DNA from: Treponemataceae bacterium
GTDB taxonomy: Bacteria > Spirochaetota > Spirochaetia > Treponematales > Rectinemataceae
Assembly (NCBI GenBank): GCA_963667725.2
Contig: CAXXHO010000005.1
Coordinates: 448,001-512,000 of the forward strand
Direction: 5' to 3'
Length of the DNA: 64,000 bases
This document shows, one piece after another, positions 22,300 through 39,779 of this stretch; positions within the stretch are counted from its first letter, which is position 1; each line of letters starts with the position of its first letter. The translations under genes and the position numbers were made by a program. The notes under the pieces are model-generated. The model made no database searches. It had not been told where the DNA came from and saw nothing but the letters and a program-made list of their open reading frames with translations.

Positions 22300-22528
22300 G
22301 TTAGAAAGCGTTCATGTTCCTTAACACTTATACCAGTGCAGCTCAACACTGTTAGAAAATACGCTGCATTTCAGAGAAATACCGAGATGAAATTGTCAGT
22401 GTTTACTTTAGGTAAATGCTGCAATGAATCTCGGCAATAAAAGATGCAGCGTATTTTCTAACATGAAATCTTACATTCTTTTCTTACATTTACTCTTTTA
22501 TTTTCTTCGAGCCATACGTCTTTCTAAC
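22300..22528. other. ORF-less hairpin cassette, copy 1 of 6
   Basis: Bounded by GTTAGAAAG/CTTTCTAAC; internal 20-bp inverted repeat at 22350-22463. Confidence 0.88.
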
Positions 22529-22733
22529 ATTCGTTTAACCTTTAAACCACGTTCCCGAGCAAAGCGAGGGATTGGCACGTGTTTTTGCATAAGACTTCAT
22601 GCAAAAACCGTGACAAAGTGGTTTATAAGGTTGAAACGGTTGTTATATGCTTTTTATTTATTACCATGATTGTTTATACAGTATAAATAATTATAAAATA
22701 ATAGAACTATGTTGACTGTTTTACAACTATTTC

Positions 22734-23648
22734 CTAATTTTCCAAACCATCTACTTCAGAGTTTTCTATATTAAGAATTGTAGCTGAGTCATTATTTTGC
22801 AGAAATCCCTTATCAATAGATCGAACTTTACTAGTCCCAATTTTCTTTAAGTTAATAAATGTTCTAGACCATACCATTGATCCCATATTATAAAGAAATG
22901 TTGCTGAATATGGTACTATAAAACTTCCATAATATGGATCACGAATATAGATATTACCATATTTATCGTAACCATAAATTACTACAACATGTCCAGAAAA
23001 AGAGCCTTGATATGCTGCAATTAATGGCATTCCTTTATTAATATTTTGTTGAAGAGTTATAAAGCTCAAAGGATTAAAAACTACTTTTGCATCCATATTT
23101 CCAAGTCCATTGAGTGCATAAATAAGCTGATTATCATTTGCTGTTGTTACATATGGAGCCCCAAATACATATGTTACAATTGTGCTCTGTGAATAATTAC
23201 AGTTATAGTATTTTAAAACCATTTGAGCACAGGCAGCCCAACACCATACTTGAGTTTGTTGATACGATAGTCCAACATCTATTGTTTCTACTCCAGAGAC
23301 CGCTGGTTCAGCATCATTTCCCAAGGAAAATGCTGGTAATATTTTTTTATCCGTTAAGCTACTATATTTTGCTGTTACAGTATAATATCCAGGGATATTC
23401 GTAGAAAAGTATTCATCAGTAAATATTTCACCATCAATAAAGATAATTGGCTCGAGATTAGGTATAATTTGGTCATTGTCATTATAAACATTACAGCCAA
23501 TAAAGATTTTATCTATGCCATTGCCAACGACACCAACCTTATCAAAATAGATTTTTATATATTCAGGATCATAATCAAAACAAAGAGAACATCCTGAGAT
23601 AAATAAAGAAAAACAAACTACAACATACTTTTTTATTAGGCTTTTCAT
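22734..23648 (-). CDS. Lipoprotein with papain-like (C39-like) cysteine peptidase domain
   Basis: Lipobox FISGC; QQTQVWCWAACAQM; GHVVVIYGYD; IRDP. Confidence 0.75.
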   Translation of the reverse strand: MKSLIKKYVVVCFSLFISGCSLCFDYDPEYIKIYFDKVGVVGNGIDKIFIGCNVYNDNDQIIPNLEPIIFIDGEIFTDEYFSTNIPGYYTVTAKYSSLTDKKILPAFSLGNDAEPAVSGVETIDVGLSYQQTQVWCWAACAQMVLKYYNCNYSQSTIVTYVFGAPYVTTANDNQLIYALNGLGNMDAKVVFNPLSFITLQQNINKGMPLIAAYQGSFSGHVVVIYGYDKYGNIYIRDPYYGSFIVPYSATFLYNMGSMVWSRTFINLKKIGTSKVRSIDKGFLQNNDSATILNIENSEVDGLEN

Positions 23649-23950
23649 AAAATCCCTCTTTTGTTGATAATATTTAAAGCTTAATATTATGTGCAAATAA
23701 TACTAATATTTATTATTATTCAAAATAAAGAGTTTTATTCTGCCCGAAGGGTCCATATAACATTTTCGCTTAACCTTTAAGCCCGACCTGAGCGTAGCGA
23801 AGGTTTGGCGCGATTCTTGCACCACTTTACGTTGCCGCTCCTACTTTACAGTATCTCGCAAGAATCGTGACAACAGGGCTTATAAGGTTGAAGCGAGTGT
23901 TAGGTCTCTTTTTCTTACTTTAATTACCGGATAACTAATTGTTTTTCTCG

Positions 23951-24385
23951 TTAAATTCTTTTCTTAAATGAATATCCTTTCTTTATATATCCTCGTTTCT
24001 CATAAAAATCATGTGCATTGATTCTCTGAATTCCACTGTTTAAAACTATTGTAGCTGCATTAACGTTTCTAGCATATTTTTCTGCTTCTTCAAGTAATCT
24101 ACTTCCGATTCCCTTATTTTGATATTCTTTCTTTACAGCAAGTGCAGCAACTCTTATATAGTCGCCATCAATTTCATAAGCAAACCCTCGTATCAATCCT
24201 ATGAATCCAACTACTGTATTATCATATTCTGCAATGAATGTACTATAATCAGTATGATTTTTTATCTTATTGAGTCGCAATGCAACATCAAAATCTGAGG
24301 AATTTTTATACCCTAAATCATTTCTGATTATATCTGCAATACAGGAATAGTCTCTTTCATCAATTGCCCTAATAGTACACGTCAT
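23951..24385 (-). CDS. GNAT N-acetyltransferase
   Basis: LAVKKEYQNKGIGSRLL, AHDFYEKRGY. Confidence 0.88.
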   Translation of the reverse strand: MTCTIRAIDERDYSCIADIIRNDLGYKNSSDFDVALRLNKIKNHTDYSTFIAEYDNTVVGFIGLIRGFAYEIDGDYIRVAALAVKKEYQNKGIGSRLLEEAEKYARNVNAATIVLNSGIQRINAHDFYEKRGYIKKGYSFKKRI

Positions 24386-24610
24386 ATTGTTCTCTTTTAT
24401 CTCAATGAAACACAGAGCACTATTTTAGATTTTTACTGAATCTAATCAACCATAATATTCACGCTTCTTACTCTTCGGCGCGAAGCGTCGACCTAACATT
24501 TTCGCTTAACCTTTAAATCCGTCCTGAGCGTAGCGAAGGATTGGCGCGCATTTTGCATTGTTGTTCCTGCAAAATGCGTGTCAACAGGATTTATAAGGTT
24601 GAAGCGGGTG

Positions 24611-25453
24611 TTAGGTGCTTAGTTTTCTTTCTGCTGATTCAACCGTTTGACACATAAGTGTCACAATTGTCATCGGACCTACTCCTCCAGGAACAGGAGT
24701 ATATGCTGATGCTTTCGCATATGCTTCTTTCTCAACATCCCCTATTCCACCAGGATGATATCCTGCATCTACTATTACTGCCCCATCCTTAATCCAATTT
24801 GCCTTAACAAAGTTAGGCTTTCCAATTGCCGCTACAACAATATCAGCTTCTTGAATAATTGATTCAATGTTTTCTGTTCTTGAATGACATATTGTAATCG
24901 TTGCATTCTCATTTAAAAGCAGCATAGTAATAGGTTTTCCAAGAATTGCACTTCTCCCAATAACCACGGCCTTCTTCCCCACCATAGGTATCTTATAGTA
25001 CTTGAGTAGTTTAATAATCCCACCAGGAGTTGCTGAAACAAAGGCATGTTCACCTAATGCCATCTGACCAAATCCAAGAGCAGTCACACCATCGACATCT
25101 TTTTGAGAATCTATTCTATCAAAACAAATTCTTTCATCAATCTGTTTTGGAACAGGATGCTGCAATAAAATACCAAATACACTACTATCATTATTTAATG
25201 TATCGATAACTGAAAGCAATTCATCCGTCGTTGTAGTTTCACTCAGTTCAACTTTCTTCGTACCAAGGCCTATTCTCTTGCAAGTATTGCCTTTCATTGT
25301 GACATATATCTTTGATGAAGGATCGTTGCCCACTAAAATCGTAGCCAATACTGGTTGAATAGTTGATTGTGTTATGATCTTTTTAACACGTTCTTTTAAT
25401 TCAAGCTCAAGTTCAGTAGCCAATTTCTTTCCATCAAGTACAATTTGTTCCAT
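24611..25453 (-). CDS. folD: Bifunctional methylenetetrahydrofolate dehydrogenase/cyclohydrolase (start reassigned to MEQIVLDGK)
   Basis: LATILVGNDPSSKIYV, GILLQHPVP, KDVDG, VIGRSAILGKP, TPVPGGVGPMT. Confidence 0.93.
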   Translation of the reverse strand: MEQIVLDGKKLATELELELKERVKKIITQSTIQPVLATILVGNDPSSKIYVTMKGNTCKRIGLGTKKVELSETTTTDELLSVIDTLNNDSSVFGILLQHPVPKQIDERICFDRIDSQKDVDGVTALGFGQMALGEHAFVSATPGGIIKLLKYYKIPMVGKKAVVIGRSAILGKPITMLLLNENATITICHSRTENIESIIQEADIVVAAIGKPNFVKANWIKDGAVIVDAGYHPGGIGDVEKEAYAKASAYTPVPGGVGPMTIVTLMCQTVESAERKLST

Positions 25454-25625
25454 GTATGTTTCCTTTTGCGCCGAAGGCGTCCACCTAACATCGGGCTTAA
25501 CCTTTAAAGCCTGTTCCTGAGCGAAGCGAGGGATTGGCGTGGTTTTTGCGTGAAGGAGCGTAGCGACTCGCAAAAACCATGACAAAAGGCTTTATAAGGT
25601 TGAAGCAGTTGTTCGGTGCTTATTA

Positions 25626-26465
25626 TTACCAATTTCTATATGTAAGTTGAGATTTATAAAGCCCTTTCCCTTTTTGTGGTATAAATAACAAACCATTTCT
25701 ATCGCAAAAATCTTCAACAGCAATATAGTTAATTTCTTGTTTAGGATTGGCACTGATAATAACTTCCATTATCATTTGTTCTATATCAAAATTGCTAATC
25801 TTATAATATGGTAATATAGAATTATTTCTATAACGAAATTCATAATTTTTTGAAGGATTATGCACCCCAGCAATTATTAGTCTCCATTCCTGTTCTTCTT
25901 CAAATTCTTCCATTTTTATTATTGGACTATATATTATTAATCGACTTATAAGATCTGATCCAAGATTTATAAGCCCCATGCCTTTTTGTTTTTCAAAACT
26001 ATCATTAATAATTTCATCTATTAGTTTAATATGATCTTTACTATTATAGACACATTTACATAAAAATATATCATCTACATCAATGGTAGATATTTTCCTT
26101 AAATAGTAAGAGTTAACACCAATACAAAATCCAGGTATGCTATTTGCGTATCCTCGCCATTGACTCAATTTATCCCTTTGAGTCGACATCGAGAAAACAC
26201 ATGTCATTTGATCAGCTTGTATCTTTAATAAAGATATTAATTGATTAGCCTCATCTCCACTTAAGCCAAATTCATCTTTTCTTTGCCAAATCCTATCCAA
26301 AAGTAATATTTTTGGATATTCAAATTCAGCAATATCGTTACAATATAAATAATTTGATGCCCATATTTCCTTTTTTGATATTATACCTAAAAATGACTCT
26401 GCATCTGTATAATGGTACAATACTTCTGGAGGTTCTTGGTCTCTAAGCAATTTGAACTCACTCAT
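25626..26465 (-). CDS. DUF2971 domain protein
   Basis: LYHYTD...ND..E, DKLSQWRGYA, K...FEEEQEWRL. Confidence 0.8.
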   Translation of the reverse strand: MSEFKLLRDQEPPEVLYHYTDAESFLGIISKKEIWASNYLYCNDIAEFEYPKILLLDRIWQRKDEFGLSGDEANQLISLLKIQADQMTCVFSMSTQRDKLSQWRGYANSIPGFCIGVNSYYLRKISTIDVDDIFLCKCVYNSKDHIKLIDEIINDSFEKQKGMGLINLGSDLISRLIIYSPIIKMEEFEEEQEWRLIIAGVHNPSKNYEFRYRNNSILPYYKISNFDIEQMIMEVIISANPKQEINYIAVEDFCDRNGLLFIPQKGKGLYKSQLTYRNW

Positions 26466-26644
26466 TAATAACTCTCCAAATTTTGGCGCCGAAGGCGTCC
26501 ACCGAACATTGGCTTAACCCTTAACGCCTGTTCCTGAGCGAAGCGAAGGATTGGCGTGGTTTTTGCATTGTTGTTCTTGCAAAAACCATGACAAAAGGCG
26601 TTATAGGGTTGAAGCAGGTGTTAGCCGATTGTATTTTAAATCTT

Positions 26645-27403
26645 CTAAATATTCATTTTTATTTCATCATTTTCAATTATATATTCCATTAGCGTATCAA
26701 ATATATAGCCTAACATAATAGTTATATCATCAATCCATTTTTTACAAATATTCCCCCACTTTTTTCGAATAGACCTAAATGCATCTGTTTTAATACTCTT
26801 CATGTAGTTAACAAAATCCTTGTCATCACTTTTTTCAAGAAGACAAAGACTATGAATTTGTTCTACATCGCTATCAGAGTATCGATCTTGATGAACGTGC
26901 AATCCACGAATATTATTGACACCACTAAATAGCTTAACATTTTTCCTTTTTAGAATTTCAATTATTTTGAATAGCTCTTCACTTTTACTTAATTTATAAT
27001 ATCGCTCAATTTTGCTTAGTAATGAGTTAATTCTATTATTTATAATATATAATTCATTAAGAAAACTATTTATATGATATCTTATATACTCTTCTTCAGT
27101 GATTTGTAGCTTTTTACTATAGCCATGCTTGAAGAAACTTTTACTTATCTCTAGATTATCTATTGAAGACATTACCTCTGAAAGAGGTTTAAAATAATAA
27201 TTGATAAATTTTAATTGCTCTTCACTTAAATTATTTTTTTCTAAAGAATGCGGCCCCTCAGTATTAAATATTACATTAGATAGTACTACTCCTAATTCTT
27301 TGTCCTTTCTTAATGTGGCTTCAGTCAAGTACTTTACAGCTTGATCAATAATTATCTTTTGATAACTAATATATTTTTTTTGATATTCTTCAATTTTTTT
27401 CAT
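26645..27403 (-). CDS. HEPN-like protein (Cthe_2314-like)
   Basis: YIRYHINSFLNELY, IRGLHVHQ RxxxxH motif. Confidence 0.6.
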   Translation of the reverse strand: MKKIEEYQKKYISYQKIIIDQAVKYLTEATLRKDKELGVVLSNVIFNTEGPHSLEKNNLSEEQLKFINYYFKPLSEVMSSIDNLEISKSFFKHGYSKKLQITEEEYIRYHINSFLNELYIINNRINSLLSKIERYYKLSKSEELFKIIEILKRKNVKLFSGVNNIRGLHVHQDRYSDSDVEQIHSLCLLEKSDDKDFVNYMKSIKTDAFRSIRKKWGNICKKWIDDITIMLGYIFDTLMEYIIENDEIKMNI

Positions 27404-27666
27404 ATGCTATCTATTATAGATATATGCCCGAAGGGTCCGGCTAACATTGGCTTAACCTTTAAAGCCTGGCCCGAGCGGCGTTGCGTAGCAACGATGCGAG
27501 GGATTGGCGTGGTTTTTGCGTAGAGGAGCGAAGCGACTCGCAAAAACCATGACAAAAGGCTTTATAAGGTTGAAGCATTTGTTAGCTGAATTATACTAAA
27601 CATATTTATTAACAAGGCTTTCTCGTCTTAGTAATTATCATTCTTTCAAATATTCTTCTATATCTA

Positions 27667-29538
27667 TTATACCGTTTTTTTAAAAAAACTTTCTCTTGCA
27701 TACATATATTTAGGATAATTATTATAATGTTCTTTTAAAACTAATAATAGCATTTTATCGTTAAGTGATTCATTAATGCTTGCTATTTTATATTTTTCTA
27801 AAACAGAATTGAAATTATTCTTTTCTACAATTTCATTAAATATTCTTTCGAATGAATCAAAATTTGCATCAAACGGTATAAGCATTGTTTGTTTATCAAG
27901 CAACTTATTTTCAATTTCTATATATCTAGAGTATAATGCAATAAATGAGACATTTATTTCTTGGCTAACATTAAAATCAGGTTTTTCTTGTATTAATCGG
28001 TTAACAAATGTCATAATAAAACTTGTTCTATCTACTATTTTAATTATATGGTTTAATACAAGATTTGAGAAATACAAGCTCTGATCAGATGAAAGAGTTA
28101 CAGCAACTGCAAATTCATTCGGTAAAATATTAATATAATTTTTAATAACATATATATCAGGCAATCGACTTATAAATTCAGCAGTGAGATATTCTTGTAG
28201 AGATTTATGTGTAAATTCATACGATTGAAAGCTACATTTAATAATTAATCCAGTATGACTTTCTATCTCTTCAACTACTGATTCAACTTGATCTTTCGGT
28301 AGATCATAGTTCACATATATTTCTTTATATACTTCTTTCAATTCATATGTAGTGAATATATTTTTTTTAATCTTTATAGTAATTTTATATGCTATATTAC
28401 TAATAAATTCAAATTTTCTATCAGTTTCAAATCTTGAATACTTCGTACCACGAATAATTGCTCTTTGCTGATCCCATTCCTCAAGTAATAAGTTAACAAT
28501 TTTCCTATACACTGTTCTAGGTTTTTCTGGAATTGACCCAGACCTTTCATAAATTGCACATAAGTGTGCAAGAGTTAATGGCTTAATTGTTGCATCATAA
28601 AAAGGAGAGTTTTCTATTTGAGCAAGTAATATTTCATTACTACTTTTTTGTGGAAACCATCTCTTTACAAATTTCTTTATTTGTTCCTTATCTAAAGGAG
28701 CAATTTCGTATTGTTCTACTTTTTCCATTACAATTAGCTGTTCACCAGTTCTTATTGTTGAAATAACTTTACATGTATTTAAATTTTTAGCCATAAAATT
28801 AATGTTAAATAATATTGATTTTTTCATATCTTCTGAAATTGATTCATCGATTCCTTCAATTATTAAATATGAACATACTTTATCTAGATAATTACAAATA
28901 CGACGTCGATACTCTAAATTATACCTCTTTTCTTTATCTTCACTATCATCAATTTCATTATTACCTTTATTATTAATTAAAATTTGGATTATTGCATTAT
29001 TAATATTCTTAATTCCGAGAGTATCAACAATATGATCAAATATTATATTTGAAATTTTATCATTATTCTTTGACTTTACTCCAAGAAGCATTTCTCTTAC
29101 AATAATTAAAATCGGTATTTGCTTTGCTTTTTCTACATCAATTCCTTCTATTACTTTATTAATAAAATATTTCATTGATGTTGTCTTTCCTGAACCAGGT
29201 TGCCCCATTATCATTAAATGGTTCTCTTCCTTTGCAATAATTTTAATTAGCTTTTCTTTTCTAATATTTTCTTTATCACTAATTCTTATCGATTTTGGAT
29301 ATAAATATGTGTCAAGTTGTATATAAACATTAGCCATTTTTTGTGAATGTGGTAAATCACGAAAGTTGATTTCTTCAGCCCACGATTTGCAGTAATGAAT
29401 ATGGCTTTTTATACTTTCGGTAATACTCATCTTATTCTCAACAATTGATAGTAACTTCTCTTTATGAGATTCTATCTCGGAAAATAATGCCGAACTTAAT
29501 CTTGATGCGGTTTCAATTGCCATCATTTGAAGGTCCAT
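27667..29538 (-). CDS. NACHT/STAND P-loop NTPase
   Basis: Walker A GQPGSGKTT, Walker B LIIEGIDE, STIR sensor, PLTL, FTHKSLQEYLTA winged-helix motif. Confidence 0.85.
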   Translation of the reverse strand: MDLQMMAIETASRLSSALFSEIESHKEKLLSIVENKMSITESIKSHIHYCKSWAEEINFRDLPHSQKMANVYIQLDTYLYPKSIRISDKENIRKEKLIKIIAKEENHLMIMGQPGSGKTTSMKYFINKVIEGIDVEKAKQIPILIIVREMLLGVKSKNNDKISNIIFDHIVDTLGIKNINNAIIQILINNKGNNEIDDSEDKEKRYNLEYRRRICNYLDKVCSYLIIEGIDESISEDMKKSILFNINFMAKNLNTCKVISTIRTGEQLIVMEKVEQYEIAPLDKEQIKKFVKRWFPQKSSNEILLAQIENSPFYDATIKPLTLAHLCAIYERSGSIPEKPRTVYRKIVNLLLEEWDQQRAIIRGTKYSRFETDRKFEFISNIAYKITIKIKKNIFTTYELKEVYKEIYVNYDLPKDQVESVVEEIESHTGLIIKCSFQSYEFTHKSLQEYLTAEFISRLPDIYVIKNYINILPNEFAVAVTLSSDQSLYFSNLVLNHIIKIVDRTSFIMTFVNRLIQEKPDFNVSQEINVSFIALYSRYIEIENKLLDKQTMLIPFDANFDSFERIFNEIVEKNNFNSVLEKYKIASINESLNDKMLLLVLKEHYNNYPKYMYARESFFKKTV

Positions 29539-29902
29539 ATATACTCCATAGATTCAAACTTTAAATATAAATTTTTATTTAATGTTTTGAGTCAAAATCA
29601 TCATTTATACTATATTTATTTATATACACAGCACTCATTTATAATTGATTTTTTGAAATTTTAGCTTTATCGTTCTTTATTCACATAATTATCAATCCTT
29701 ACTATGATTTAATTCCATAATTACAAATATACAATATATGCGATAATATATTTGGCATGATTTTTATGCGCCGAAGGCGTCCAGCTAACATTTTCGCTTA
29801 ACCTTTAAATCCGTCCTGAGCGATAGCGAAGGATTGGCGTGGTTTTTGCGTGATCTTCTCGCAAAAACCATGACAACAGGATTTATAAGGTTGAAGCGGA
29901 TG

Positions 29903-30397: not shown

Positions 30398-30624
30398 TGT
30401 CGCTCCTTAAAAACTAAGAAAGCTTTAAATTGCAATTTGAAAGCTTGTAGTAATGATCTTCTTGCGCGCCGAAGGCGTCTACCTAACATTTTCGCTTAAC
30501 CTTTAAGCCCGACCTGAGCGTAAGCGAAGGTTTGGCGCGATTCTTGCAACACTTTACGTTGCCGCTCCTACTTTACTGAATCTCGCAAGAAGCGTGCCAA
30601 AGGGCTTATAAGGTTGAAGCGGGT

Positions 30625-30851
30625 GTTAGAAAGCGTTCATGTTCCTTAAAACTTATACCTGGGCAGCTTAACACTGTTAGAAAATGCGCTGCATTTCAGA
30701 GAAATACCGAGATGAGTTGTCAGCGTTTACTTTAGGTAAATGCTGCAATGAATCTCGGCAATAAAAGATGCAGCGTATTTTCTAACATGAAATCTTACAT
30801 TCTTTTCTTACATTACCTTTTCTTTTTCTTCGAGCCATACGTCTTTCTAAC
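30625..30851. other. ORF-less hairpin cassette, copy 2 of 6
   Basis: Near-identical to 22300..22528. Confidence 0.88.
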
Positions 30852-30963
30852 ATTGGCTTAACCCTTAACGCCTGTTCCTGAGCGAAGCGAAGGATTGGCG
30901 TGGTTTTTGCGTCATCTTCTCGCAAAAACCATGACAAAAGGCGTTATAGGGTTGAAGCATTTG

Positions 30964-31719
30964 TTAGAGCCTTTTTTTTATACCAAACAAACCTAAAGGA
31001 TCTTGTTCTAAAGCTTCCCTATATAATCCAATTATTTTATTAACTTCGAAAAACATACATTTTGATTTGCCAATATAAATTTCATTAATATATCCTTTTT
31101 TATATGCCAAATCTTGTATGGTATACCATGGTTGTGTTGTAGGTTTTCCAGTTTCAATACACCATTCATCTTCTAGATATTTTTTTAAAACCTCTTCTGA
31201 TGGTTTGAATATTTCAACTATTTGACTAGGTAAATTATTTTCTACATAATGCATGCTTGTTAATTTATAAATATCTACACCTAGGAGAAGAGCAAAACCA
31301 TTTTTTGAATGAAGATTACATAAATTATGTGAATTTAACTCTGCTTCATTACCCCAGGCAGCAACTCTATGTAATCCTTTTCCAACAATTACTTCTAGAT
31401 CATTTTTAAAAGTATCAGCAATAATTCCCATTCCTGTACGCTCTTTGGAATCTTCTTTTAATATTTTTAGTTTAGTGACTAATCCATAATTAATATCTTC
31501 GTTGGTTAATTGCATATTTCCAGAGATTGGAAATGCTGGCATTATTATTGCACCTGCCTTTGTAATAATATTTTTTAATGCATTTATTATAGTTACAGCA
31601 CCATTTTGAACATGGCCAAAACTGGATAATGAACTATGAACTTCAACATACATACCTTTTTTTAATCCAATTTTAAGTAATCCATTTTGAATATCATCTA
31701 AAGTCAAATTATTTTCCAA
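30964..31719 (-). CDS. AAC(3)-family N-acetyltransferase-like protein
   Basis: VHSSLSSFGHVQNGA, GAIIMPAF, GMGIIADTF, LLLGV...TSMHYVE. Confidence 0.8.
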   Translation of the reverse strand: MENNLTLDDIQNGLLKIGLKKGMYVEVHSSLSSFGHVQNGAVTIINALKNIITKAGAIIMPAFPISGNMQLTNEDINYGLVTKLKILKEDSKERTGMGIIADTFKNDLEVIVGKGLHRVAAWGNEAELNSHNLCNLHSKNGFALLLGVDIYKLTSMHYVENNLPSQIVEIFKPSEEVLKKYLEDEWCIETGKPTTQPWYTIQDLAYKKGYINEIYIGKSKCMFFEVNKIIGLYREALEQDPLGLFGIKKRL

Positions 31720-31892
31720 TTCTTATTCCTCTGGCGCCGAAGGCGTCGCTCTAACATTTTCGCTTAACCTTTAAGCCCGACCTGAGCGTAGCGAAGGTTT
31801 GGCGCGATTCTTGCACCACTTTACATTGCCGCTCCTACTCTACGGATTCTCGCAAGAAGCGTGCCAAAGGGCTTATAAGGTTGAAGCGTGTG

Positions 31893-32642
31893 TTAGATGC
31901 TCCCATCTTCAAAATAAAGTATTCCTTCATCAAATATATCTTTTTGCTTTTCAATGATCCCATTACCATTTATAACAAATGCACCACCATAATAATTTTC
32001 AATAGCATCTATATAATTTGATAGTATTACTCTTGTACCTAATTTCTTTACTTGCTCTATATAATAATCTCTTTCTTCTTTATCCCAAATCTCTTGTGAA
32101 TAAGGTAGTATCTCACTACTTCGAGCTATAGGTACTATTACTATATCAACTTTTGTTTCTTTAACGTCTTTAACAAGGTCTTCTTCAAACAGATCTCCAC
32201 AAAGTAAGTAGCTATACTTTTTTGAACCTACAGAAAACTCTACTATTTTTTTGCCTTTACTATAAATATTTTTATCGGCATTTCTACCATGCCACCCATT
32301 ACTTATCCTACGATAATGAGCGTTAATGTTTCCTGTGGTATTAATACATAGTACCGAATCATAGATTTTATTTTGATCTCGTTCAAGAAATCCTAAAGAT
32401 ACGTAGACTCTACATTTACAAGCTATTTCTTTAATACTATTGATATATGAAGAATCTATTGAAACTGCATATTTGTAATCGTGTTCAGGATTATCATCAG
32501 ATATAAATCCAGTTAAGCTTGTTTCTGGGAATATAATGAACTTGGCATTATTTGCAGCAGCTTCTTCTATGTACTGCTTAATAGTTTCAATACTATGAGA
32601 AATACAAGTATCAATTCTTGGAACAACGATTGCATATTTCAT
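31893..32642 (-). CDS. Carbon-nitrogen hydrolase (nitrilase superfamily)
   Basis: IIFPETSLTGF, YRRI, LLCGDLF. Confidence 0.8.
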   Translation of the reverse strand: MKYAIVVPRIDTCISHSIETIKQYIEEAAANNAKFIIFPETSLTGFISDDNPEHDYKYAVSIDSSYINSIKEIACKCRVYVSLGFLERDQNKIYDSVLCINTTGNINAHYRRISNGWHGRNADKNIYSKGKKIVEFSVGSKKYSYLLCGDLFEEDLVKDVKETKVDIVIVPIARSSEILPYSQEIWDKEERDYYIEQVKKLGTRVILSNYIDAIENYYGGAFVINGNGIIEKQKDIFDEGILYFEDGSI

Positions 32643-32805
32643 ACAAACATCCGTAGGATGCATCTAACATTTTCGCTTAACCTTTAAGCCCGACCTGAGC
32701 GTAAGCGAAGGCTTGGCGCGATTCTTGCACCACTTTACGTTGCCGCTCCTACTTTACTGAATCTCGCAAGAAGCGTGCCAAAGGGCTTATAAGGTTGAAG
32801 CGGGT

Positions 32806-33034
32806 GTTAGAAAGCGTTCATGTTCCTTAATACTTTTACCTGTGCAGCTTAACACTGTTAGAAAATACGCTGCATTTCAGAGAAATACCGAGATGAAATT
32901 GTCAACGTTTACTTTAGGTAAATGCTGCAATGAATCTCGGCAATAAAAGATGCAGCGTATTTTCTAACATGAAATCTTACATTCTTTTCTTACATTTACC
33001 CTTTCTTTTTCTTCGAGCCATACGTCTTTCTAAC
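32806..33034. other. ORF-less hairpin cassette, copy 3 of 6
   Basis: Near-identical to 22300..22528. Confidence 0.88.
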
Positions 33035-33147
33035 ATTTTCGCTTAACCTTTAAATCCGTCCTGAGCGTAGCGAAGGATTGGCGCGCATTTTGCATTGTTG
33101 TTCCTGCAAAATGCGTGTCAACAGGATTTATAAGGTTGAAGCGGGTG

Positions 33148-33648
33148 TTAGGCTCCTCTTTTTTCGTATTCTTCTCTTCTTATCTCTATTACAATTTCTT
33201 CTTTATCTCTGCTTATTTCTTTAAATCCATAATTCTGTAATGCCCTATATCCATTTTGATTCTTTATATCTATTCTATCTTCCATTATTTCCCCATTAAA
33301 TTCATTGAAGTAATAATGAAGTAGTAAATCTAATGCTTGTCTACCAAATCCATGATTCCTATAATTGCTTTTTATCTTTACATTGAGTCTCGCTTTCTTT
33401 TCTTCTTTATCATAATTATGAAAGCTTATCTCTCCAATACACTGATGAGTATCTTCATGCAATATCAAAAAGTACTTATTTATATCTTTATCAAGTACAA
33501 GCATTTTTTGATACCATTGAGTATATCTTTCCTCTGACAATGGTTGTATGCCTCCTACATCTTCCATTGTCTCGGGATCTTCCCATATTCCTTTTACGAG
33601 TTGCCAATCACCTTTGGTCGGTGCAACTAGTTTTATTACGCTGCCCAT
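33148..33648 (-). CDS. GNAT N-acetyltransferase
   Basis: IGEISF, YRNHGFGRQAL, ALQNYGF. Confidence 0.8.
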   Translation of the reverse strand: MGSVIKLVAPTKGDWQLVKGIWEDPETMEDVGGIQPLSEERYTQWYQKMLVLDKDINKYFLILHEDTHQCIGEISFHNYDKEEKKARLNVKIKSNYRNHGFGRQALDLLLHYYFNEFNGEIMEDRIDIKNQNGYRALQNYGFKEISRDKEEIVIEIRREEYEKRGA

Positions 33649-33844
33649 AAATGATTTTCTCTATTGTCTAGTGAGCCTAACATTGGCTTAACCTTTAACG
33701 CTCGTTCCCGAGCGAAGCGAGGGATTGGCGTGGTTTGTGCATTGTTGTTCCTGCACAAACCATGACAAAGAACGTTATAAGGTTGAAGCATATGTTAGAA
33801 GCTTTTTTAGGTAACTTTTGTCAATATGAATATTATAATTGATT

Positions 33845-34630
33845 CTACACTTTCTTTCCAATATAAAACACATACCCATAGTATTCTTTATATTTACTAT
33901 ATAATTCAGCTCCTCGCTTTTCATATTCAACAAATACTTCAGCGGATTTATTACCCTTATACTTTCTTAAAAATATTCCAGCTGCTTTTTTTTCAGCATT
34001 GAAAAAGTTATCAATCCAACAAGATTCAGGCAGACTAAAGGATGCTGTAAATATAAATCCTGCTTTTTGCATTTTAGCTATATTATTTGGAATTGTATCT
34101 ATTTCAGGATATGCGTCATTCCAAAAATCTTCGATCTCTTTTGGCCGCTCGTCTGTGAACCAAGAGGCTTCAGTAACAGCAATATAGCCTCCTTTCTTTA
34201 AGTAATTAATAAAATATTTCATTCCATTTTTAAATCCAATATTGTAAATAGCTCCTTCACACCAGATAAGATCTAATCCACCAATTTTGAAATCAAGTTT
34301 ATCCATTGATCCAATTTCGCCCTTTACTTTATCTTGAAGTTTTAATCGATCAATATTGCTATTTAGTTTCTCAATAAAACCGGAGAATAAATCAATAGCA
34401 GTAATTGTACCCGGGATGTTTTGTGCCAAGACAATTGTCTGACAACCAGTACCACATCCAAGATCGGCTACTTTTAAGGTACTGTTTAAATTATCTATAA
34501 AGCTTAGTGCTTTTAATGTAGCATCATTGCTTCCCGGCCCTTGACGTTCCATGCTTAAGAAAAATTCGCAAATCAATGAAACATCGAAATCATGAATATT
34601 AGGCTCTTCATTTCTCATTTCTTCCTCCAA
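33845..34630 (-). CDS. Class I SAM-dependent methyltransferase
   Basis: RQGPGS, VADLGCGTG, DLIWCEGAIY. Confidence 0.9.
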   Translation of the reverse strand: MEEEMRNEEPNIHDFDVSLICEFFLSMERQGPGSNDATLKALSFIDNLNSTLKVADLGCGTGCQTIVLAQNIPGTITAIDLFSGFIEKLNSNIDRLKLQDKVKGEIGSMDKLDFKIGGLDLIWCEGAIYNIGFKNGMKYFINYLKKGGYIAVTEASWFTDERPKEIEDFWNDAYPEIDTIPNNIAKMQKAGFIFTASFSLPESCWIDNFFNAEKKAAGIFLRKYKGNKSAEVFVEYEKRGAELYSKYKEYYGYVFYIGKKV

Positions 34631-34879
34631 TGCTTCTGCATTATCATGATATTTTTATTTCACACACTATTCTTTTTAGTTATATTAGTTATTTACACAA
34701 ATGATATATTACTATTTTATCTAGCGCCGAAGGCGTCCTTCTAACATTAGCTTGACCCTTAACGCTCGCTCCTGAGCGTAGCGAAGGATTGGCGTGGTTT
34801 GTGCATTGTTGTTCTGCACAAACCATGACAAAGGGCGTTATAGGGTCGAAGCAGGTGTTAGGCATTTTTTTCTTAAGGT

Positions 34880-35233
34880 TTATTCCTTTATTCTATAATA
34901 TTTAGCGAGTTCTTTGTATTTATTATAATCATAATTACTTTTAATTCTTGCTTTTTCTTTAATATATTCTATATTACTTTTTAACTTTTCTGGAATTTCT
35001 ACTGTTTCACTCTTTCTTGCTAATACTAATATTACTTCAACTATTTCGGTCCAGCTATCTATATTCTTTCCATCAAGTAATATTGGAACAATTTGATTAA
35101 TTGTATCAAAAGCAATAATTGGTTCTAAACACTTAATATATTTTTCACAAAATCCAGAAAACGCCCATTCATTCTTAGAGTACATTTTTCGAATGGATAA
35201 CAATTCTTCTATAAACTGATTCTTATTATTCAT
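34880..35233 (-). CDS. Hypothetical protein
   Basis: Only ORF in the cassette, AGGA RBS. Confidence 0.65.
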   Translation of the reverse strand: MNNKNQFIEELLSIRKMYSKNEWAFSGFCEKYIKCLEPIIAFDTINQIVPILLDGKNIDSWTEIVEVILVLARKSETVEIPEKLKSNIEYIKEKARIKSNYDYNKYKELAKYYRIKE

Positions 35234-35620
35234 TTTACATCCTATATTAAATTGATTATACTAAATTATTCAAATTACTAAATATAATTACGCTATAGGA
35301 ACAATCTTCTCTTGCACCATCTAACAAGCTAAATTTCAATATTGATAAACAAATAAGTCAATTTTACATAATAGTTTTCAAAATAGTTCCTCGGCCCGAA
35401 GGGTCTGCCTAACATTTTCGCTTAACCTTTAAGCCCGACCTGAGCGTAGCGAAGGATTGGCGCGATTCTTGCAACACTTTACATTGCCGCTCCTACTTTA
35501 CTGAATCTCGCAAGAAGCGTGCCAAAGGGCTTATAAGGTTGAAGCGGATGTTCGATGTCTTCTCTTTTTATTCTTCTAAAATAATTTGAAGCCCTTATAT
35601 TATTTGTCTTTTCCATTTGT

Positions 35621-36043
35621 CTACATACTTCTTTTTGATATTGGATGCTCTTCATTTAATTGAAGTAGATCCCATAGGTTTCCATAGAGATCTTCAAATA
35701 CTGCTACCATTCCATACTCAGCCTTTTTAGGCTCCCTAATGAATTTGATTCCATTTTCCTTCATAGCATTATAATCTCTCCAAAAATCATCTGTATTAAG
35801 AAATAAAAATACTCTGCCGCCGGTTTGATTTCCAATAAATGGTTCTTGCTCTGGCTTTGAAGCTTTAGCAAGTAAAAGCGTAGCTCCAGAACCTCCAGGA
35901 GGAGCAACTACAACCCATCGTTTATTTTGTTCAGGCTGATACGTGTCTTCAATAAGCACAAATTTTAGTTTCTTTATATAAAAATCAAGAACCTCATCAT
36001 AATCCTTTACAACAAGTGCTATATGTACAATTGATTGTTTCAT
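35621..36043 (-). CDS. VOC/glyoxalase-family protein
   Basis: HIALVVKDYDE, RWVVVAPPG, YGMVAVFEDLYGNLWDL. Confidence 0.9.
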   Translation of the reverse strand: MKQSIVHIALVVKDYDEVLDFYIKKLKFVLIEDTYQPEQNKRWVVVAPPGGSGATLLLAKASKPEQEPFIGNQTGGRVFLFLNTDDFWRDYNAMKENGIKFIREPKKAEYGMVAVFEDLYGNLWDLLQLNEEHPISKRSM

Positions 36044-36272
36044 ATTCCACCAATGTTACTAGTTTATATGAATATCTTCTACGAATAGAACGTATGCTTT
36101 TTTAAGATTCTTGCGCCGAAGGCGTCCATCGAACATTGGCGCTTAACCTTTAAGCCCGACCTGAGCGTAAGCGAAGGTTTGGCGCGATTCTTGCAACACT
36201 TTAAGTTGCCGCTCCTACTTTACGGGATCTCGCAAGAATCGTGACAACAGGGCTTATAAGGTTGAAGCGTGT

Positions 36273-36501
36273 GTTAGAAAGCGTTCATGTTCCTTAATAC
36301 TTTTACCTGTGCAGCTTAACACTGTTAGAAAATACGCTGCATTTCAGAGAAATACCGAGATGAAGTTGTCAACATTTACTTTAGGTAAATGCTGCAATGA
36401 ATCTCGGCAATAAAAAATGCAGCGTATTTTCTAACATGAAATCTTACATTCTTTTCTTACATTTACCCTTTCTTTTTCTTCGAGCCATACGTCTTTCTAA
36501 C
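36273..36501. other. ORF-less hairpin cassette, copy 4 of 6
   Basis: Near-identical to 22300..22528. Confidence 0.88.
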
Positions 36502-36614
36502 ATTTTCGCTTAACCTTTAAATCCGTCCTGAGCGTAGCGAAGGATTGGCGCGCATTTTGCATTGTTGTTCCTGCAAAATGCGTGACAACAGGATTTATAA
36601 GGTTGAAGCGTGTG

Positions 36615-37178
36615 TTAGGTTTCTTTTTTTATTATATATATGCTCTTTATCTTCCCTGATCTCTCTTCATTCATCCAATATTTCATTCCTATCGCTTTTG
36701 CCACTGCTTTGGATGCTTCATTCTCTGGATTTATAATCGCTATAATCTTATCTAGTTTCTTTTCAGTAAAAGCATAATTAACTAATGCCTTTGATATTTC
36801 TTTACCATATCCTTTTCCCCATTTTGTTCTATCTATGTAATAATTCAGCTCTATATACCCTTTTCCCTTTATCTCTTTCGGAATAAATCCCGCATGTCCT
36901 ATTAATTCATGATTGCTTTTAAGCTCAATTGGCCATAGATCATATTCTTCCCTTTTTGGATCTTCTGCTACCTTCCTAAACTCTTCTATTAAAGACAATT
37001 TATCTCTTGGGCCTCCAGTATACCTTGTCATTTCGTCATCCATCCACAAGTATACTAAGAACTTAATGTCTGATTTTCTTTGATAACGCAGTATCAATCT
37101 ACTGGTTTTTAGTATCGTATCATCCATACTTTCTCCAACAAAATATCTCTGTGATTCAGCGATTTTACTTTTCTGCAC
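36615..37178 (-). CDS. GNAT N-acetyltransferase; paralog of 15400..15939 (true start probably MDDTILK)
   Basis: WGKGYGKE; high identity to the earlier copy. Confidence 0.85.
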   Translation of the reverse strand: MQKSKIAESQRYFVGESMDDTILKTSRLILRYQRKSDIKFLVYLWMDDEMTRYTGGPRDKLSLIEEFRKVAEDPKREEYDLWPIELKSNHELIGHAGFIPKEIKGKGYIELNYYIDRTKWGKGYGKEISKALVNYAFTEKKLDKIIAIINPENEASKAVAKAIGMKYWMNEERSGKIKSIYIIKKET

Positions 37179-37228
37179 GAAGCGCCAAACCTAACATTCG
37201 TACATATTATCTAATACACTTTTTGTTT

Positions 37229-37426
37229 TTAAATTGAAATGCATTTTTGCACGATGAATATTATTCCTCCGATAACAATTGCTTTAAAAAGTAATGAAGC
37301 AATTTTGTTATTCAAAATAGCATCCATATCTACTGTCCCATTTTTAATTAGGATATAAATAATTATCACTATAAGTATAGGCAAACCAACCAAACCAATA
37401 ATCAACTTTGTATTCATTTGTATCAC
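37229..37426 (-). CDS. Small two-TM hypothetical protein
   Basis: Two hydrophobic segments; first gene of an apparently fused cassette. Confidence 0.55.
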   Translation of the reverse strand: MIQMNTKLIIGLVGLPILIVIIIYILIKNGTVDMDAILNNKIASLLFKAIVIGGIIFIVQKCISI

Positions 37427-37566
37427 CGTTTTCTATTACGCCCGAAGGGTCAACCTAACGTTGGCTTAACCTTTAAAGCCTGGCCCGAGCGGCGTTGCGT
37501 AGTAACGATGCGAGGGATTGGCATGGTTTGTGCCTTGTTGTTCTGCACAAACCATGCCAAAAGGCT

Positions 37567-38217
37567 TTACAAGGTTGAAGCATGTGTTAGGTGCTTATCT
37601 TTTCTTAATGTTTTTATAGATCTGGCTACCCCATATAATACTAAAATAACTCCAACTAATACATTCAACCATTGTATTGCTATAGAAGGTATACTTGTCT
37701 TAATTATTGATAATAAAAGCATAACAATTGAAAGAAATAAAAATGTTGCTCCACCAGCACCTATACCAAATAATATGAGTTGTTTCTTTAAATAATTCTT
37801 TTCTATTGCTTTAGTAACAAATATGCTGCTCCAAAATACAATTGTCAAAGGACTTGATATTGTTAATATGAAGCAATTTATGAAACTTTTTATTGGACTC
37901 CATTCTATTGAACTATTTTTGATATTTGTACTTATATTATATAATCCATTTTTTAAGATTATAACTCCAAATATTATTAATACCATCGATCCAATAATAC
38001 CAAATATTTTTTTTACTTTTTCCTTCTCTAATAGTTTTCCAAGCCCAATAATCGATAATGCTATATACAAGTAATCTACAATTGTAACTGCAAGGATAGC
38101 AAATATGCTATTAATAAAATTGCTTTCAAAAGTAATACCTAATATATAAAAGAAAACAGGACCTACTGCTAATTGAAGAAACAATCCTGTCAGCAATCCA
38201 TTTAATAACGGCTCCAT
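37567..38217 (-). CDS. LysE-family transporter (start reassigned to MEPLLNG)
   Basis: LAVGPV, LTISSPLTIVFW, multiple TMs. Confidence 0.82.
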   Translation of the reverse strand: MEPLLNGLLTGLFLQLAVGPVFFYILGITFESNFINSIFAILAVTIVDYLYIALSIIGLGKLLEKEKVKKIFGIIGSMVLIIFGVIILKNGLYNISTNIKNSSIEWSPIKSFINCFILTISSPLTIVFWSSIFVTKAIEKNYLKKQLILFGIGAGGATFLFLSIVMLLLSIIKTSIPSIAIQWLNVLVGVILVLYGVARSIKTLRKDKHLTHASTL

Positions 38218-38356
38218 TATTATCCTCATTGAACTATTGAAAGCGCGATAGCGTCCACCTAACATTTTCGCTTAACCTTTAAATCCGTCCTGAGCGTAGC
38301 GAAGGATTGGCGCGCATTTTGCATTGTTGTTCCTGCAAAATGCGTGACAACAGGAT

Positions 38357-38800
38357 TTATAAGGTTGAAGCAGGTGTTAGGTTATTTTTTCTCCCTAAAA
38401 ATAGGTGACTTGCATTTCCACATACTAAACATTTTTCCCTATGCATACAGAGCAGTTTCCCACATTCACTACATTCCCATTTTAACTCTTCTTGCCTTAA
38501 AAACAGTTGCATCCCTTGCTCTTTGATTGTTTTAAAGTTTTCATAAATGCTTACATTGTATTTATTTGAGTATCTTTTATTTAAATCTTTGATCCTTCTA
38601 CATGGATACTTCATACATTCACTACATAAAAGAGTAGTTTCTCCGTGTTTCTCTTCGCAATTTCTTATTCCACAGACAACACAATGTTTTGCTTTATTTA
38701 TATCTGATCCATTACATCCATTGCAGCTATTCTTTTCTCTTTGAAAAGCCAAGCAAAGGCTGCAATTTATGCCACAAGGAGCTATATCTTTTGCTTTCAT
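38357..38800 (-). CDS. DUF3795-like Cys-rich protein
   Basis: IAPCGINCSLC, CNGC, CSECMKYPC. Confidence 0.8.
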   Translation of the reverse strand: MKAKDIAPCGINCSLCLAFQREKNSCNGCNGSDINKAKHCVVCGIRNCEEKHGETTLLCSECMKYPCRRIKDLNKRYSNKYNVSIYENFKTIKEQGMQLFLRQEELKWECSECGKLLCMHREKCLVCGNASHLFLGRKNNLTPASTL

Positions 38801-38994
38801 ATTCTTACGAGTAACGCCCTTGCTTTTTCGTAATCTTCTTCACTCACCATTATTGTTGCGTCTATACTAAAATATGCTGGTATTTGACTACCACTATCCG
38901 ATGATTGAATAATGTAAGGAATATTTTCTCTATCAAGAGTTATAGCAAAAGCATCAGCCTCAAATCGATTGTTGAATTCTTTCAGCTTTTTCAA
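38797..38994 (-). CDS. DUF2007-like small protein; paralog of 47627..47821
   Basis: FEADAFAITLDRENIP...IMVSEEDYEKARALL. Confidence 0.7.
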   Translation of the reverse strand: MKKLKEFNNRFEADAFAITLDRENIPYIIQSSDSGSQIPAYFSIDATIMVSEEDYEKARALLVRI

Positions 38995-39186
38995 ATTTTC
39001 TTCCTTTATATGAAATGAATCTGATTCGTGCGCGTAGCGTCAACCTAACATTTTCGCTTAACCTTTAAGCCCGACCTGAGCGTAAGCGAAGGTTTGGCGC
39101 GATTCTTGCAACACTTTACGTTGCCGCTCCTACTTTACTGAATCTCGCAAGAAGCGTGCCAAAGGGCTTATAAGGTTGAAGCGGGT

Positions 39187-39413
39187 GTTAGAAAGCGTTC
39201 ATGTTCCTTAAAACTTATACCTGGGCAGCTTAACACTGTTAGAAAATGCGCTGCATTTCAGAGAAATACCGAGATGAGTTGTCAGCGTTTACTTTAGGTA
39301 AATGCTGCAATGAATCTCGGCAATAAAAGATGCAGCGTATTTTCTAACATGAAATCTTACATTCTTTTCTTACATTACCTTTTCTTTTTCTTCGAGCCAT
39401 ACGTCTTTCTAAC
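39187..39413. other. ORF-less hairpin cassette, copy 5 of 6 (appears identical to copy 2)
   Basis: Same diagnostic variants as 30625..30851. Confidence 0.88.
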
Positions 39414-39550
39414 ATTTTCGCTTAACCTTTAAGCCCGACCTGAGCGATAGCTCAGGTTTGGCGCGATTCTTGCACCACTTTACATTGCCGCTCCTACTTT
39501 ACTGAATCTCGCAAGAAGCGTGCCAAAGGGCTTATAAGGTTGAAGCGGGT

Positions 39551-39779
39551 GTTAGAAAGCGTTCATGTTCCTTAATACTTATACCTGTGCAGCTTAACAC
39601 TGTTAGAAAATACGCTGCATTTCAGAGAAATACCGAGATGAAATTGTCAGTGTTTACTTTAGGTAAATGCTGCAATAAATCTCGGCAATAAAAGATGCAG
39701 CGTATTTTCTAACATGAAATCTTACATTCTTTTCTTACATTTACTCTTTTATTTTCTTTGAGCCATACGTCTTTCTAAC
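39551..39779. other. ORF-less hairpin cassette, copy 6 of 6 (tandem with copy 5)
   Basis: Closest to copy 1. Confidence 0.88.

Follow-up and report, generated by a model that had tools for sequence, protein, structure and literature searches.

The 64,000-nt stretch of DNA analyzed here, hereafter called the window, carries six copies of a cassette of 227-229 bp that are 94-100% identical to one another (Table 1), and no further copy of this hairpin cassette was found elsewhere in the 4.2-Mb genome. Each copy is bounded by a GTTRRRY core and an inverse core and has its own attC, and the six copies sit between six different pairs of neighbors, with ends exactly at the core sites. The top strand of the cassette is the minus strand of the window. 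An intact integrase gene, intI (G000:C5:550880-551806), scored 446.9 bits against a family cutoff of 265 and lies on the same strand as the cassettes; the array is linked to an attI, the sequence of which was read, and was confirmed in four contig sets from one sample. The six copies are thus gene-less cassettes of a reverse (Treponema-type) spirochaete chromosomal integron. A sequence-only reading had placed six copies at these positions and sorted them into three subtypes, and both the coordinates and the pairwise differences agreed with it, as copies 1 and 6 differ at five positions, copies 2 and 5 at none, and copies 3 and 4 at three.

Table 1. Positions in the window of the gene-less cassettes, their attC sites, their hairpins, and the invariant blocks
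Feature	Position	Strand	Remark
Cassette copy 1	22300..22528	-	subtype A, 229 bp
Cassette copy 2	30625..30851	-	subtype B, 227 bp
Cassette copy 3	32806..33034	-	subtype C, 229 bp
Cassette copy 4	36273..36501	-	subtype C, 229 bp
Cassette copy 5	39187..39413	-	subtype B; identical to copy 2, including attC
Cassette copy 6	39551..39779	-	subtype A; in tandem with copy 5
Own attC of copy 1	22160..22302	-	143-nt variant
Own attC of copy 2	30485..30627	-	
Own attC of copy 3	32666..32808	-	
Own attC of copy 4	36132..36275	-	144 nt
Own attC of copy 5	39047..39189	-	
Own attC of copy 6	39411..39553	-	also the upstream site of copy 5
Hairpin of copy 1	22350..22463		114 nt
Hairpin of copy 2	30675..30787		
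Hairpin of copy 3	32856..32969		
Hairpin of copy 4	36323..36436		
Hairpin of copy 5	39237..39349		
Hairpin of copy 6	39601..39714		
Invariant 16-nt block at stem base	22345..22360	+	most of an 11-bp palindrome plus core-like GTTAGAAA; same place in all copies
Invariant apical loop	22405..22413	+	with closing pairs
Invariant unpaired 9-nt flank	22469..22477	+	top strand reads ATG-TAA, start-stop

The copies are clustered at about positions 82-103 of the 151 in the array (P = 2e-4). Described earlier as the most repeated cassette, this one holds that rank within the window but not in the whole array, where another gene-less cassette of 162-165 bp has 11 copies; the two most repeated cassettes are therefore both gene-less, and they occupy non-overlapping zones of the array (P = 2.4e-4). 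Gene-less cassettes account for 26 of the 212 parsed cassettes in the genome (about 12%), and one stands first or second at attI in all three of its arrays. The long attC (143-144 nt) occurs in all six copies versus 22/150 in this array, as had been claimed of the cassette's own site; it is not retained in the homologous loci, however, and its assignment to the element is not supported. GC skew yielded no replication direction. The genome also holds one reverse transcriptase (a frame of 1736 aa) and one IS110 gene, both far from the array.

The hairpin, as laid out in copy 1, comprises a 20-bp basal helix, a variable 13x9 internal loop, and an upper helix of about 23 bp with a bulge, closed by an invariant apical loop of 5 nt. 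Its fold z scores were -7.9 on the minus strand and -9.1 on the plus strand (0/200 shuffles), and its perfect arms measure 20-22 bp, whereas arms of at least 17 bp occurred in only 7 of 206 other parsed cassettes. The nested-stem fold proposed earlier was therefore upheld as a strong fold, although not in every detail: copies 2 and 5 have a G.T/A.C pair within the 20-bp stem, and the inner stem as then quoted matches only copies 1, 2, 5, and 6, misfitting copies 3 and 4. No strand preference was found, as the RNA folding energy was lower on the bottom strand in 6/9 sequences and the DNA energy in 4/9, versus a bottom strand favored in 97.6% of 212 attC sites used as a control.

Four homologous loci (L028, L038, L039, and L047) were found in three datasets, all within similar attC arrays, and the 114-nt two-helix hairpin is retained in all four. 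The element lies within attC arrays only (10/10 loci), and its exact ends, varied neighbors, and homologs in other arrays suggest that the cassette moves as a single unit. Among 45 pairs, five double changes from one Watson-Crick pair to another were found, and two pairs show three pair types. This count of five, compared with 0.59 expected (0/20,000 permutations), comes from only four independent lineages and leaves out one misregistered row with 5 further apparent pairs of 10. Paired columns were less variable than unpaired ones (16-18/89 versus 11-12/29; Fisher P 0.024-0.040), so the stem does not mutate as freely as the loop; equally free mutation was among the outcomes that the sequence-only reading had named as contrary to its view. 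Helix lengths and the apical loop are constant across lineages, in contrast to the drifting sequence of the internal loop and of the outer flanks. Judged from the aligned sequences, covariation demonstrates purifying selection on the hairpin structure, because pairs change on both sides and the apical loop and flanks are invariant; the proposal of a selected structure in an ORF-less, IntI-amplified cassette is thus borne out.

The cassette has no conserved ORF. Read from its ATG, the minus-strand frame ends after 5, 14, or 18 codons depending on the copy, as reported before (copy 6 has CAA, not CGA), and the longest frames in the copies of this genome span 18-35 codons. A bottom-strand frame is open for 51 codons in L028, L038, and L039, with pN/pS of 0.30 (L028/L039) and 0.23 (copies 1/4), and could encode a 51-residue peptide with the hairpin as its structured mRNA, as in type I toxins. 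This frame is broken in two lineages, however: it stops at codon 10 in L047, and in this genome it lacks an ATG, has an early stop, and is frameshifted in 2/6 copies. In addition, pN/pS rises to 0.66-0.88 in deeper pairs, no Pfam match was obtained, and searches returned one unrelated-looking match among 1.84 billion proteins and four weak matches in 400 genomes, which makes a peptide most improbable.

An Rfam search, which had been recommended earlier, returned no family at gathering score (best 25.3 bits versus 47; 0 matches in 104,785 nt, the sRNA-Xcc1 family included), and BLAST against 72,556 plasmids and 50,697 phages gave no match. Viral contigs yielded 3, 3, and 0 pattern matches, and these six loci failed the model; of 21 pattern matches in metagenomes, 18 were chance. 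Among genomes, the cassette was found in 1/68 others of the family, in one real match plus four short chance matches among 400 of the order, and with model R2 in 0/150 (a sample without G036, which has no assembled intI); since MAGs often lack arrays, these survey negatives mean "not found" rather than absence. MITEs with TG...CA terminal repeats are short and non-coding. The hairpin cassette is like them in being short and non-coding, with a 20-bp terminal inverted repeat and several copies, but there is no target duplication, the flanks are the same in 10/10 loci, the repeat occurs only within this cassette, and the internal helices covary; MITE identity was rejected, and the match to a MITE or gene fragment that had been named as a counterindication was not found. 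Several other identities were also rejected. A dif/Xer site was dismissed by eye, the spacing being wrong for the dif consensus. A bridge-RNA-like guide loop aimed at attI does not fit, as the attI core is identical in 5/69 family genomes and the internal loop varies, and derivation from attI does not fit either, as the attI profile has no match in the cassette (ranks 2-115 of 216). As to masking of the flanking attC by the hairpin, R-box pairing was below 0.5 in 7/11 flanking attC sites versus about 12-19% of others, but the folding window favors short cassettes and shuffled interiors behaved alike.

We tentatively propose, with a probability of roughly 0.4, that IntI duplication amplifies the cassette and that its hairpin punctuates array transcripts, as an RNase III-type stalk or a weak two-way terminator. 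The copy number would reflect repeated excision and re-insertion by IntI, within a single period of array history, of a cassette that is short and cheap. The conserved 114-nt stem-loop is the cargo and would most likely act in RNA and in cis. The genome contains an RNase III gene (rnc), and the 20-22-bp basal helix beside the internal loop is a candidate duplex for an RNase III-type processing stalk. RNase III has little primary-sequence requirement, yet the apical loop, the 16 nt of the stem base, and the unpaired 9-nt flank are invariant; this counts against the model, as it hints at a sequence-specific partner that the model leaves unnamed. Furthermore, a GC helix followed by a U-rich tail occurs alike on both strands in 4/4 lineages, and together with the A-tract it could pause or weakly terminate RNA polymerase arriving from either side; strand-neutral folding is what a two-way element would show. 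A terminator scan, however, found 0 sites in 601 nt around copy 3, and the tail, with no more than 5-6 U in 8, closes a loop of about 75 nt (the folded insert). A landed cassette would split the array transcript into segments, of which the upstream part would gain a protective 3′ hairpin, while expression of the cassettes behind would be damped or reset. According to the available text of PMC3867540, the ideal RNase III substrate is 22 bp, single-strand cuts at loops leave stabilizing 3′ hairpins, and the T7 polycistron is a processing precedent. The five T7 early signals described there likewise place about two helical turns beside an internal loop in a polycistronic transcript; unlike them, ours is a candidate site by sequence, is mobile as part of a cassette, can fold on either strand, and has an invariant loop and flanks. 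In favor of the amplification part, short cassettes are excised more in one orientation (PMC5371416, in the text available). Against the model, attC hairpins themselves lack terminator action (PMC11014356), and the identity of the stem ends with the cassette's own core ends finds no explanation in it.

Instead of acting in cis, the cassette might encode a free-standing small RNA, cut out or started inside it, with a protein or an mRNA as its target in trans. The irregularity of the helices and the invariance of the loop and bulge are consistent with this, as are bottom-strand G.T changes at 7 pair positions, but A.C changes at 4 positions favor the opposite strand. An integron-borne sRNA oriented against Pc is a precedent (10.1101/2025.06.18.660453; PMC6557892, within the portions available), and the Xanthomonas cassette of sRNA-Xcc1, as far as its available description goes, is likewise a structured non-coding cargo spread between species; ours, a candidate by sequence, differs in having no Rfam match and no symE or other gene. 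With no conserved sigma-70 promoter or terminator (scan around copy 3 and inspection of the alignment), no Hfq found in the genome, and only three exact 14-mer matches, at two places, elsewhere in the genome, a trans-acting RNA seems unlikely. Quite unlikely, in our judgment, is a promoter or operator cassette in which the invariant blocks are double-stranded DNA sites for proteins and a paired operator or a cruciform accounts for the inverted repeat. Gene-less cassettes carrying promoters are known from Vibrionaceae and Treponema (PMC11014356; PMC6557892), resemble ours in possibly tuning their neighbors, and include a Treponema-type array, and the strand-neutral folding agrees with such a role; in ours, however, the conserved part is the hairpin, no -35/-10 pair is conserved across lineages, and the sole scan match falls in an attC, with none in the cassette body. 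Another difference is that the search of Treponema-order genomes gave no sequence match. The 11-bp palindrome of the stem base also forms part of a perfect 19-bp palindrome where a TetR gene of this genome begins, but this is one 12-nt match in 4.2 Mb, near chance, and pairs 47 and 59 of the upper helix covary, which would not be expected of operators.

At both of its ends the stem is identical to the 8-nt core ends of its own cassette, an 8-mer with 9 occurrences across 189,656 nt of the bodies of other cassettes; the previously noted resemblance to core sites thus exceeds chance. It is possible, though rather doubtful, that the hairpin works as single-stranded DNA or a cruciform on the integron machinery, either as a core-site mimic that binds IntI but is not cut or as a fold that makes the cassette shorter and so aids its own excision and re-insertion, with selection then at the level of the cassette as a selfish mini-cassette or integrase modulator. 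Confinement to attC arrays and the separate zones of the two most repeated, gene-less cassettes fit this; the invariant flank matches, in opposite strand orientation, a motif that 7 attI sites conserve at about 59 nt from the crossover on its near side, and sequence hardly separates single-stranded DNA from RNA motifs (PMC5737381). attC sites and simple IntI sites, in the text available for PMC5371416 and PMC4792948, are imperfect hairpins of similar size with a GTT/AAC base and a bulged base, as is ours, and the AAC/GTT triplet is just what attC sites share (PMC5371416). In the hairpin, however, this triplet is not invariant, with AAC changed to AAT on one arm in 3/4 homologs (L028, L038, and L047). 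Its R boxes face outward around a continuous 20-bp helix; the nearest L-like box lies 3 nt outside, and there is neither an inner spacer nor an L box at the right spacing. The attI profile has no match, no cassette was inserted at the inner cores in 10/10 loci, so that the hairpin is never a cassette junction, and shuffling it caused no consistent change in predicted attC R-box/end pairing in 8 loci. A usable IntI site or decoy, as suggested earlier, is thus disfavored, and the decoy reading is weak because AAC is lost, the L-box spacing is wrong, strand bias is absent, and the long attC is not retained. Also doubtful is the reading that the cassette parasitizes or regulates the integron itself as a non-coding element, whose core-capped hairpin would engage the integrase unrecombined and so promote its own re-insertion or throttle shuffling, gene-less cassettes sweeping the array in successive waves, the hairpin cassette first and the 163-bp one after. 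Quasi-palindrome correction can imitate compensatory change, and a neutral element would account for the identical ends: a cheap mobile relic, for example a cassette end that was duplicated or nested, in which template-switch repair, not selection, keeps the repeat perfect. Against this, neither the unpaired loop nor the flank varies, the bulges and the internal loop have been preserved, and the overall identity of 76% to L028 is near the 79% of a coding cassette shared with that locus; we regard neutrality as very unlikely, even if gene-less cassettes have been considered possibly selfish (PMC1382264, in the text available).

A close parallel is with the paralogous non-coding cassettes that Boucher et al. 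2006 (PMC1382264) described from Vibrio chromosomal integrons, which, in its available text, are also ORF-less with many copies per array, have close homologs in one clade only and whole-length conservation, as here, and were likewise left undecided between selfish DNA and a promoter or RNA. Ours differs in belonging to a spirochaete reverse integron and in having a defined secondary structure with covariation; the main text of PMC1382264 contains "hairpin", "secondary structure", and "palindrom" 0 times. The same text puts the share of gene-less cassettes in Vibrio arrays at 6-49%, and in the literature covered, as far as its available portions go, the documented functions of gene-less cassettes are promoter activity and one sRNA only. 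Whether such cassettes are selfish or regulatory has been a standing question since 2006, and this cassette, a small defined structure with natural compensatory variants, can separate RNA, integrase, and promoter models. If the hairpin acts on IntI, it would be a new class of cassette-level selfish element, and if the parasite or regulator reading is true, large integrons would be an arena for selfish DNA below gene size. If the hairpin punctuates transcripts, integrons would shuffle expression boundaries besides genes.

The six copies of the gene-less cassette lie at the positions at which the sequence-only reading had placed them, measure 227-229 bp and are 94-100% identical; BLAST, a motif search and a covariance model detected no further copies elsewhere in the 4.2-Mb genome. 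Their division into three subtypes was likewise borne out, with five base differences between copies 1 and 6 (subtype A), none between copies 2 and 5 (B), and three between copies 3 and 4 (C). Every copy ends exactly at core sites and stands between a different pair of neighbors, indicating that it moved as a single cassette. The long attC variant, which was thought always to accompany the cassette, was found in all six copies (143-144 nt, a type present in 22 of the 150 parsed cassettes of the array), but it is not kept in the homologs: the sites of homologous loci L028, L038, and L039 measure 171, 107, and 117 nt, respectively, and that of L047 is of the common type. The long attC thus reflects inheritance within this genome. 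Disagreement between body and attC sequence distances suggests attC exchange. Along the array (window 22300-39779) the subtypes follow a nested order, A-B-C-C-B-A, for which the chance is 1 in 15.

The array to which the window belongs has about 150 attC sites; its cassette genes and intI are encoded on the minus strand, with attI behind intI, a reverse layout of the kind reported for Treponema (PMC3607928; PMC6557892). Three integrons of this type are present in the genome, and the frames of all three integrases (L001-L003) are open over 431-480 aa and extend N-terminally beyond the IntI domain. Five of 69 family genomes share an identical attI core (L087-L093). About 59 nt upstream of it stands a second conserved block, the first 8 nt of which match the invariant flank of the studied cassette on the opposite strand; this 8-mer occurs near the cassette start in only one other of 212 cassettes. 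Near the distal array end, one cassette has a gene for a tyrosine recombinase, encoded on the opposite strand (contig C5, 409617-410597). Of 212 cassettes, 102 have a small GC hairpin at the 5′ end, with examples throughout the window (e.g., 25468-25481), and in 40 of these the bottom-strand loop with its closing pair reads cGAAg, which resembles the very stable DNA mini-hairpins; these elements may help attC folding.

A gapped-pattern search of metagenomes gave 21 matches, three of them real (L028 and L038, from one dataset, and L039), and a second pattern gave one match in genomes, L047 (the same DNA as L010). All four loci hold the same cassette, about 76% identical, in similar attC arrays; in L047 a putative IS-like insertion interrupts one flank. 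When only the four homologs went into a covariance model, it recovered all six copies at 112-117 bits. Wider searches added no further locus: the cassette was found in 1 of 68 genomes of the family and 1 of 400 of the order, a second covariance model gave no match over 150 genomes, and none was found in the plasmids, phages, and viral contigs searched.

In the 114-nt hairpin, a 13×9 internal loop separates a 20-bp basal helix from an upper helix, which has about 23 pairs and a bulged T and is capped by a 5-nt loop. Both strands of the cassette fold far better than shuffles (z -7.9 and -9.1; 0/200). Double-sided changes that keep Watson-Crick pairing occur at 5 of 45 pairs (columns 21, 22, 29, 47, and 59), with three pair types each at columns 29 and 47; a count of 10 covarying pairs was discarded, being inflated by one misregistered row. 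Column shuffles, which ignore relatedness, matched the data in 0/500 cases for percentage paired, 0/500 for covariation score, and 1/500 for pair count. When the substitutions were re-placed at random with their number and kind kept, the numbers observed versus expected were 5 versus 0.59, 3 versus 0.26, 3 versus 0.49, and 4 versus 0.64 (P <5e-5 to 0.008), in comparisons that share lineages; the covariation rests on only four lineages. Differences fell in 16-18 of 89 paired columns and in 11-12 of 29 unpaired ones (Fisher P 0.024-0.040). No variation among loci is seen in the apical loop, in 16 nt at the base of the stem, or in an unpaired flank of 9 nt, and the outer flanks of the homologs share 40-48% identity with the copies of this genome. 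The covariation, the fewer changes in paired columns, and the invariant loop and flanks demonstrate that the structure is real and under selection, as had been proposed. Template-switch repair of palindromes can mimic compensatory change; it would not, however, keep loops, bulges, and flanks, which makes a neutral relic highly improbable.

That no reading frame is conserved also held true, given that the top-strand ATG frame runs for 5-35 codons depending on the locus and L039 lacks its ATG. On the bottom strand, three homologs keep a frame open for 51 codons, with a pN/pS of 0.30; deeper pairs gave 0.66-0.88. This frame has a stop in L047, and in this genome it has no ATG, an early stop, and a frameshift in two copies; no protein family was found for it in the searches run. 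A peptide as the cargo is scarcely credible. In copy 1 (window 22469-22490), and at the same place in each other copy, the invariant flank spells ATG-TAA on the top strand at 5-8 nt from the stem, twice in this genome. The base of the stem would be covered by a ribosome positioned at this site, a weak indication because the 6-mer is a common word here, with 147 occurrences in these cassettes. The hairpin-base palindrome has 12 nt in common, and 13 nt in three homologs, with a perfect 19-bp palindrome located where a TetR-family gene begins (L072:3131-3149; contig C3, 43130).

The studied copies cluster at array positions of about 82-103 of 151 (P 2e-4). Positions 8-71 hold the 11 copies of an unrelated gene-less cassette of 162-165 bp, without overlap (P 2.4e-4); these positions are approximate, some attC sites having been missed in parsing. 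Because array position reflects age, the two zones read as successive waves. In one orientation, excision is more frequent for short cassettes (1.17e-3 at 60 bp versus 5.25e-5 at +3,000 bp; PMC5371416), and non-coding cassettes are typically paralogous (PMC1382264); therefore, the copy number needs no host benefit. Conservation across genera needs selection, at the host or the cassette level.

Both stem ends are identical to the cassette's own 8-nt ends, a word that occurs 9 times in the bodies of other cassettes (189,656 nt), and this rarity indicates a real likeness, by origin or by function. The inside-out core sites of the sequence-only reading therefore stand as a likeness to core ends, but probably not as a working attC. 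The AAC triplet, which attC sites have in common (PMC5371416; PMC4792948), is AAT on one arm in three of four homologs, the spacer and L box are absent inside, and insertions at the inner cores were found at 0 of 10 loci. With DNA energies the bottom strand is the more stable in 4 of 9 hairpins, and with RNA energies in 6 of 9, versus 97.6% of 212 true attC sites. Predicted R-box pairing is low in 7 of 11 attC sites flanking the cassette. Masking by the hairpin was rejected, since a shuffled hairpin gave no consistent change in predicted folding at 8 loci, and the low pairing thus comes from the matching ends of the short cassette. An action of the hairpin as DNA on IntI is, on this evidence, unlikely.

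We tentatively favor, with a probability of about 0.4, a model in which the hairpin would act in RNA, in cis. It does not account for the invariant loop and flanks or for the core-like ends. The basal helix has the size of an RNase III substrate, and rnc is present in the genome; RNase III cuts beside loops leave stabilizing 3′ hairpins, by which T7 segments its polycistron (PMC3867540). Transcription of large arrays proceeds in blocs that take in non-coding cassettes as well (PMC2945992), and polar effects of cassettes act mainly at the mRNA level (PMC11511950). Either strand shows the same succession of A-tract, GC helix, and U-rich tail, and this two-way symmetry would fit the lack of strand bias and a weak two-way terminator; a terminator scan found none. 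An sRNA acting in trans would follow a documented gene-less function, sRNA-Xcc1 (10.1101/2025.06.18.660453); a search of the genome for Hfq gave no match, and we regard this reading as quite improbable. Promoter cassettes are documented as well (PMC11014356; PMC6557892; review PMC8876359), and a promoter or operator role here is very doubtful. In all three arrays of the genome, gene-less cassettes take the first or second place at attI, and in relatives one of three readable attI sites has, by eye, such a cassette in first place; this location suits a regulatory role or high mobility alike.

Coordinates of neighboring and other gene-less cassettes (G000, this genome, with its contigs C1, C5, and C7; L039 and L089, other loci examined)
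Feature	Location	Remark
Neighboring cassette, C39/C70-like peptidase	window 22734-23696	
Neighboring cassette, FolD homolog	window 24611-25585	
Neighboring cassette, NACHT NTPase	window 27667-29538	
Neighboring cassette, aminoglycoside 3-N-acetyltransferase-family protein	window 30964-31719	
11-copy gene-less cassette	window 48051-48215; G000:C5:513341-543821	attI-proximal zone, mixed attC types
Gene-less 491/562 bp cassettes	G000:C5:549393-549883, 534565-535055; G000:C1 (5 copies); L039:1031-1097	
GC-rich gene-less cassette, 425-426 bp	G000:C7:38160-39123, 42784-43208; L089	

Other gene-less cassettes were also observed. The 491/562 bp cassettes have in common a hairpin of 66-67 nt, the stem of which is perfect over 17-20 bp and is preceded at 8-9 nt on the bottom strand by a TATACY word, a candidate -10 box, in all three types; in L039 this hairpin cassette adjoins the studied one. 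The GC-rich cassette, which matched no Rfam family, occupies the first two places at attI of the third integron and, as judged by eye, the first place in a relative. The studied element is itself a gene-less cassette; it matches no Rfam family, and a MITE was rejected as its identity. It differs from the DUF1874 motif (PMC5737381) and the delta-attI cassettes (PMC12901181). Searches of the openly accessible literature gave no description of a covarying hairpin as the cargo of a gene-less cassette, and the function of this one is directly testable.
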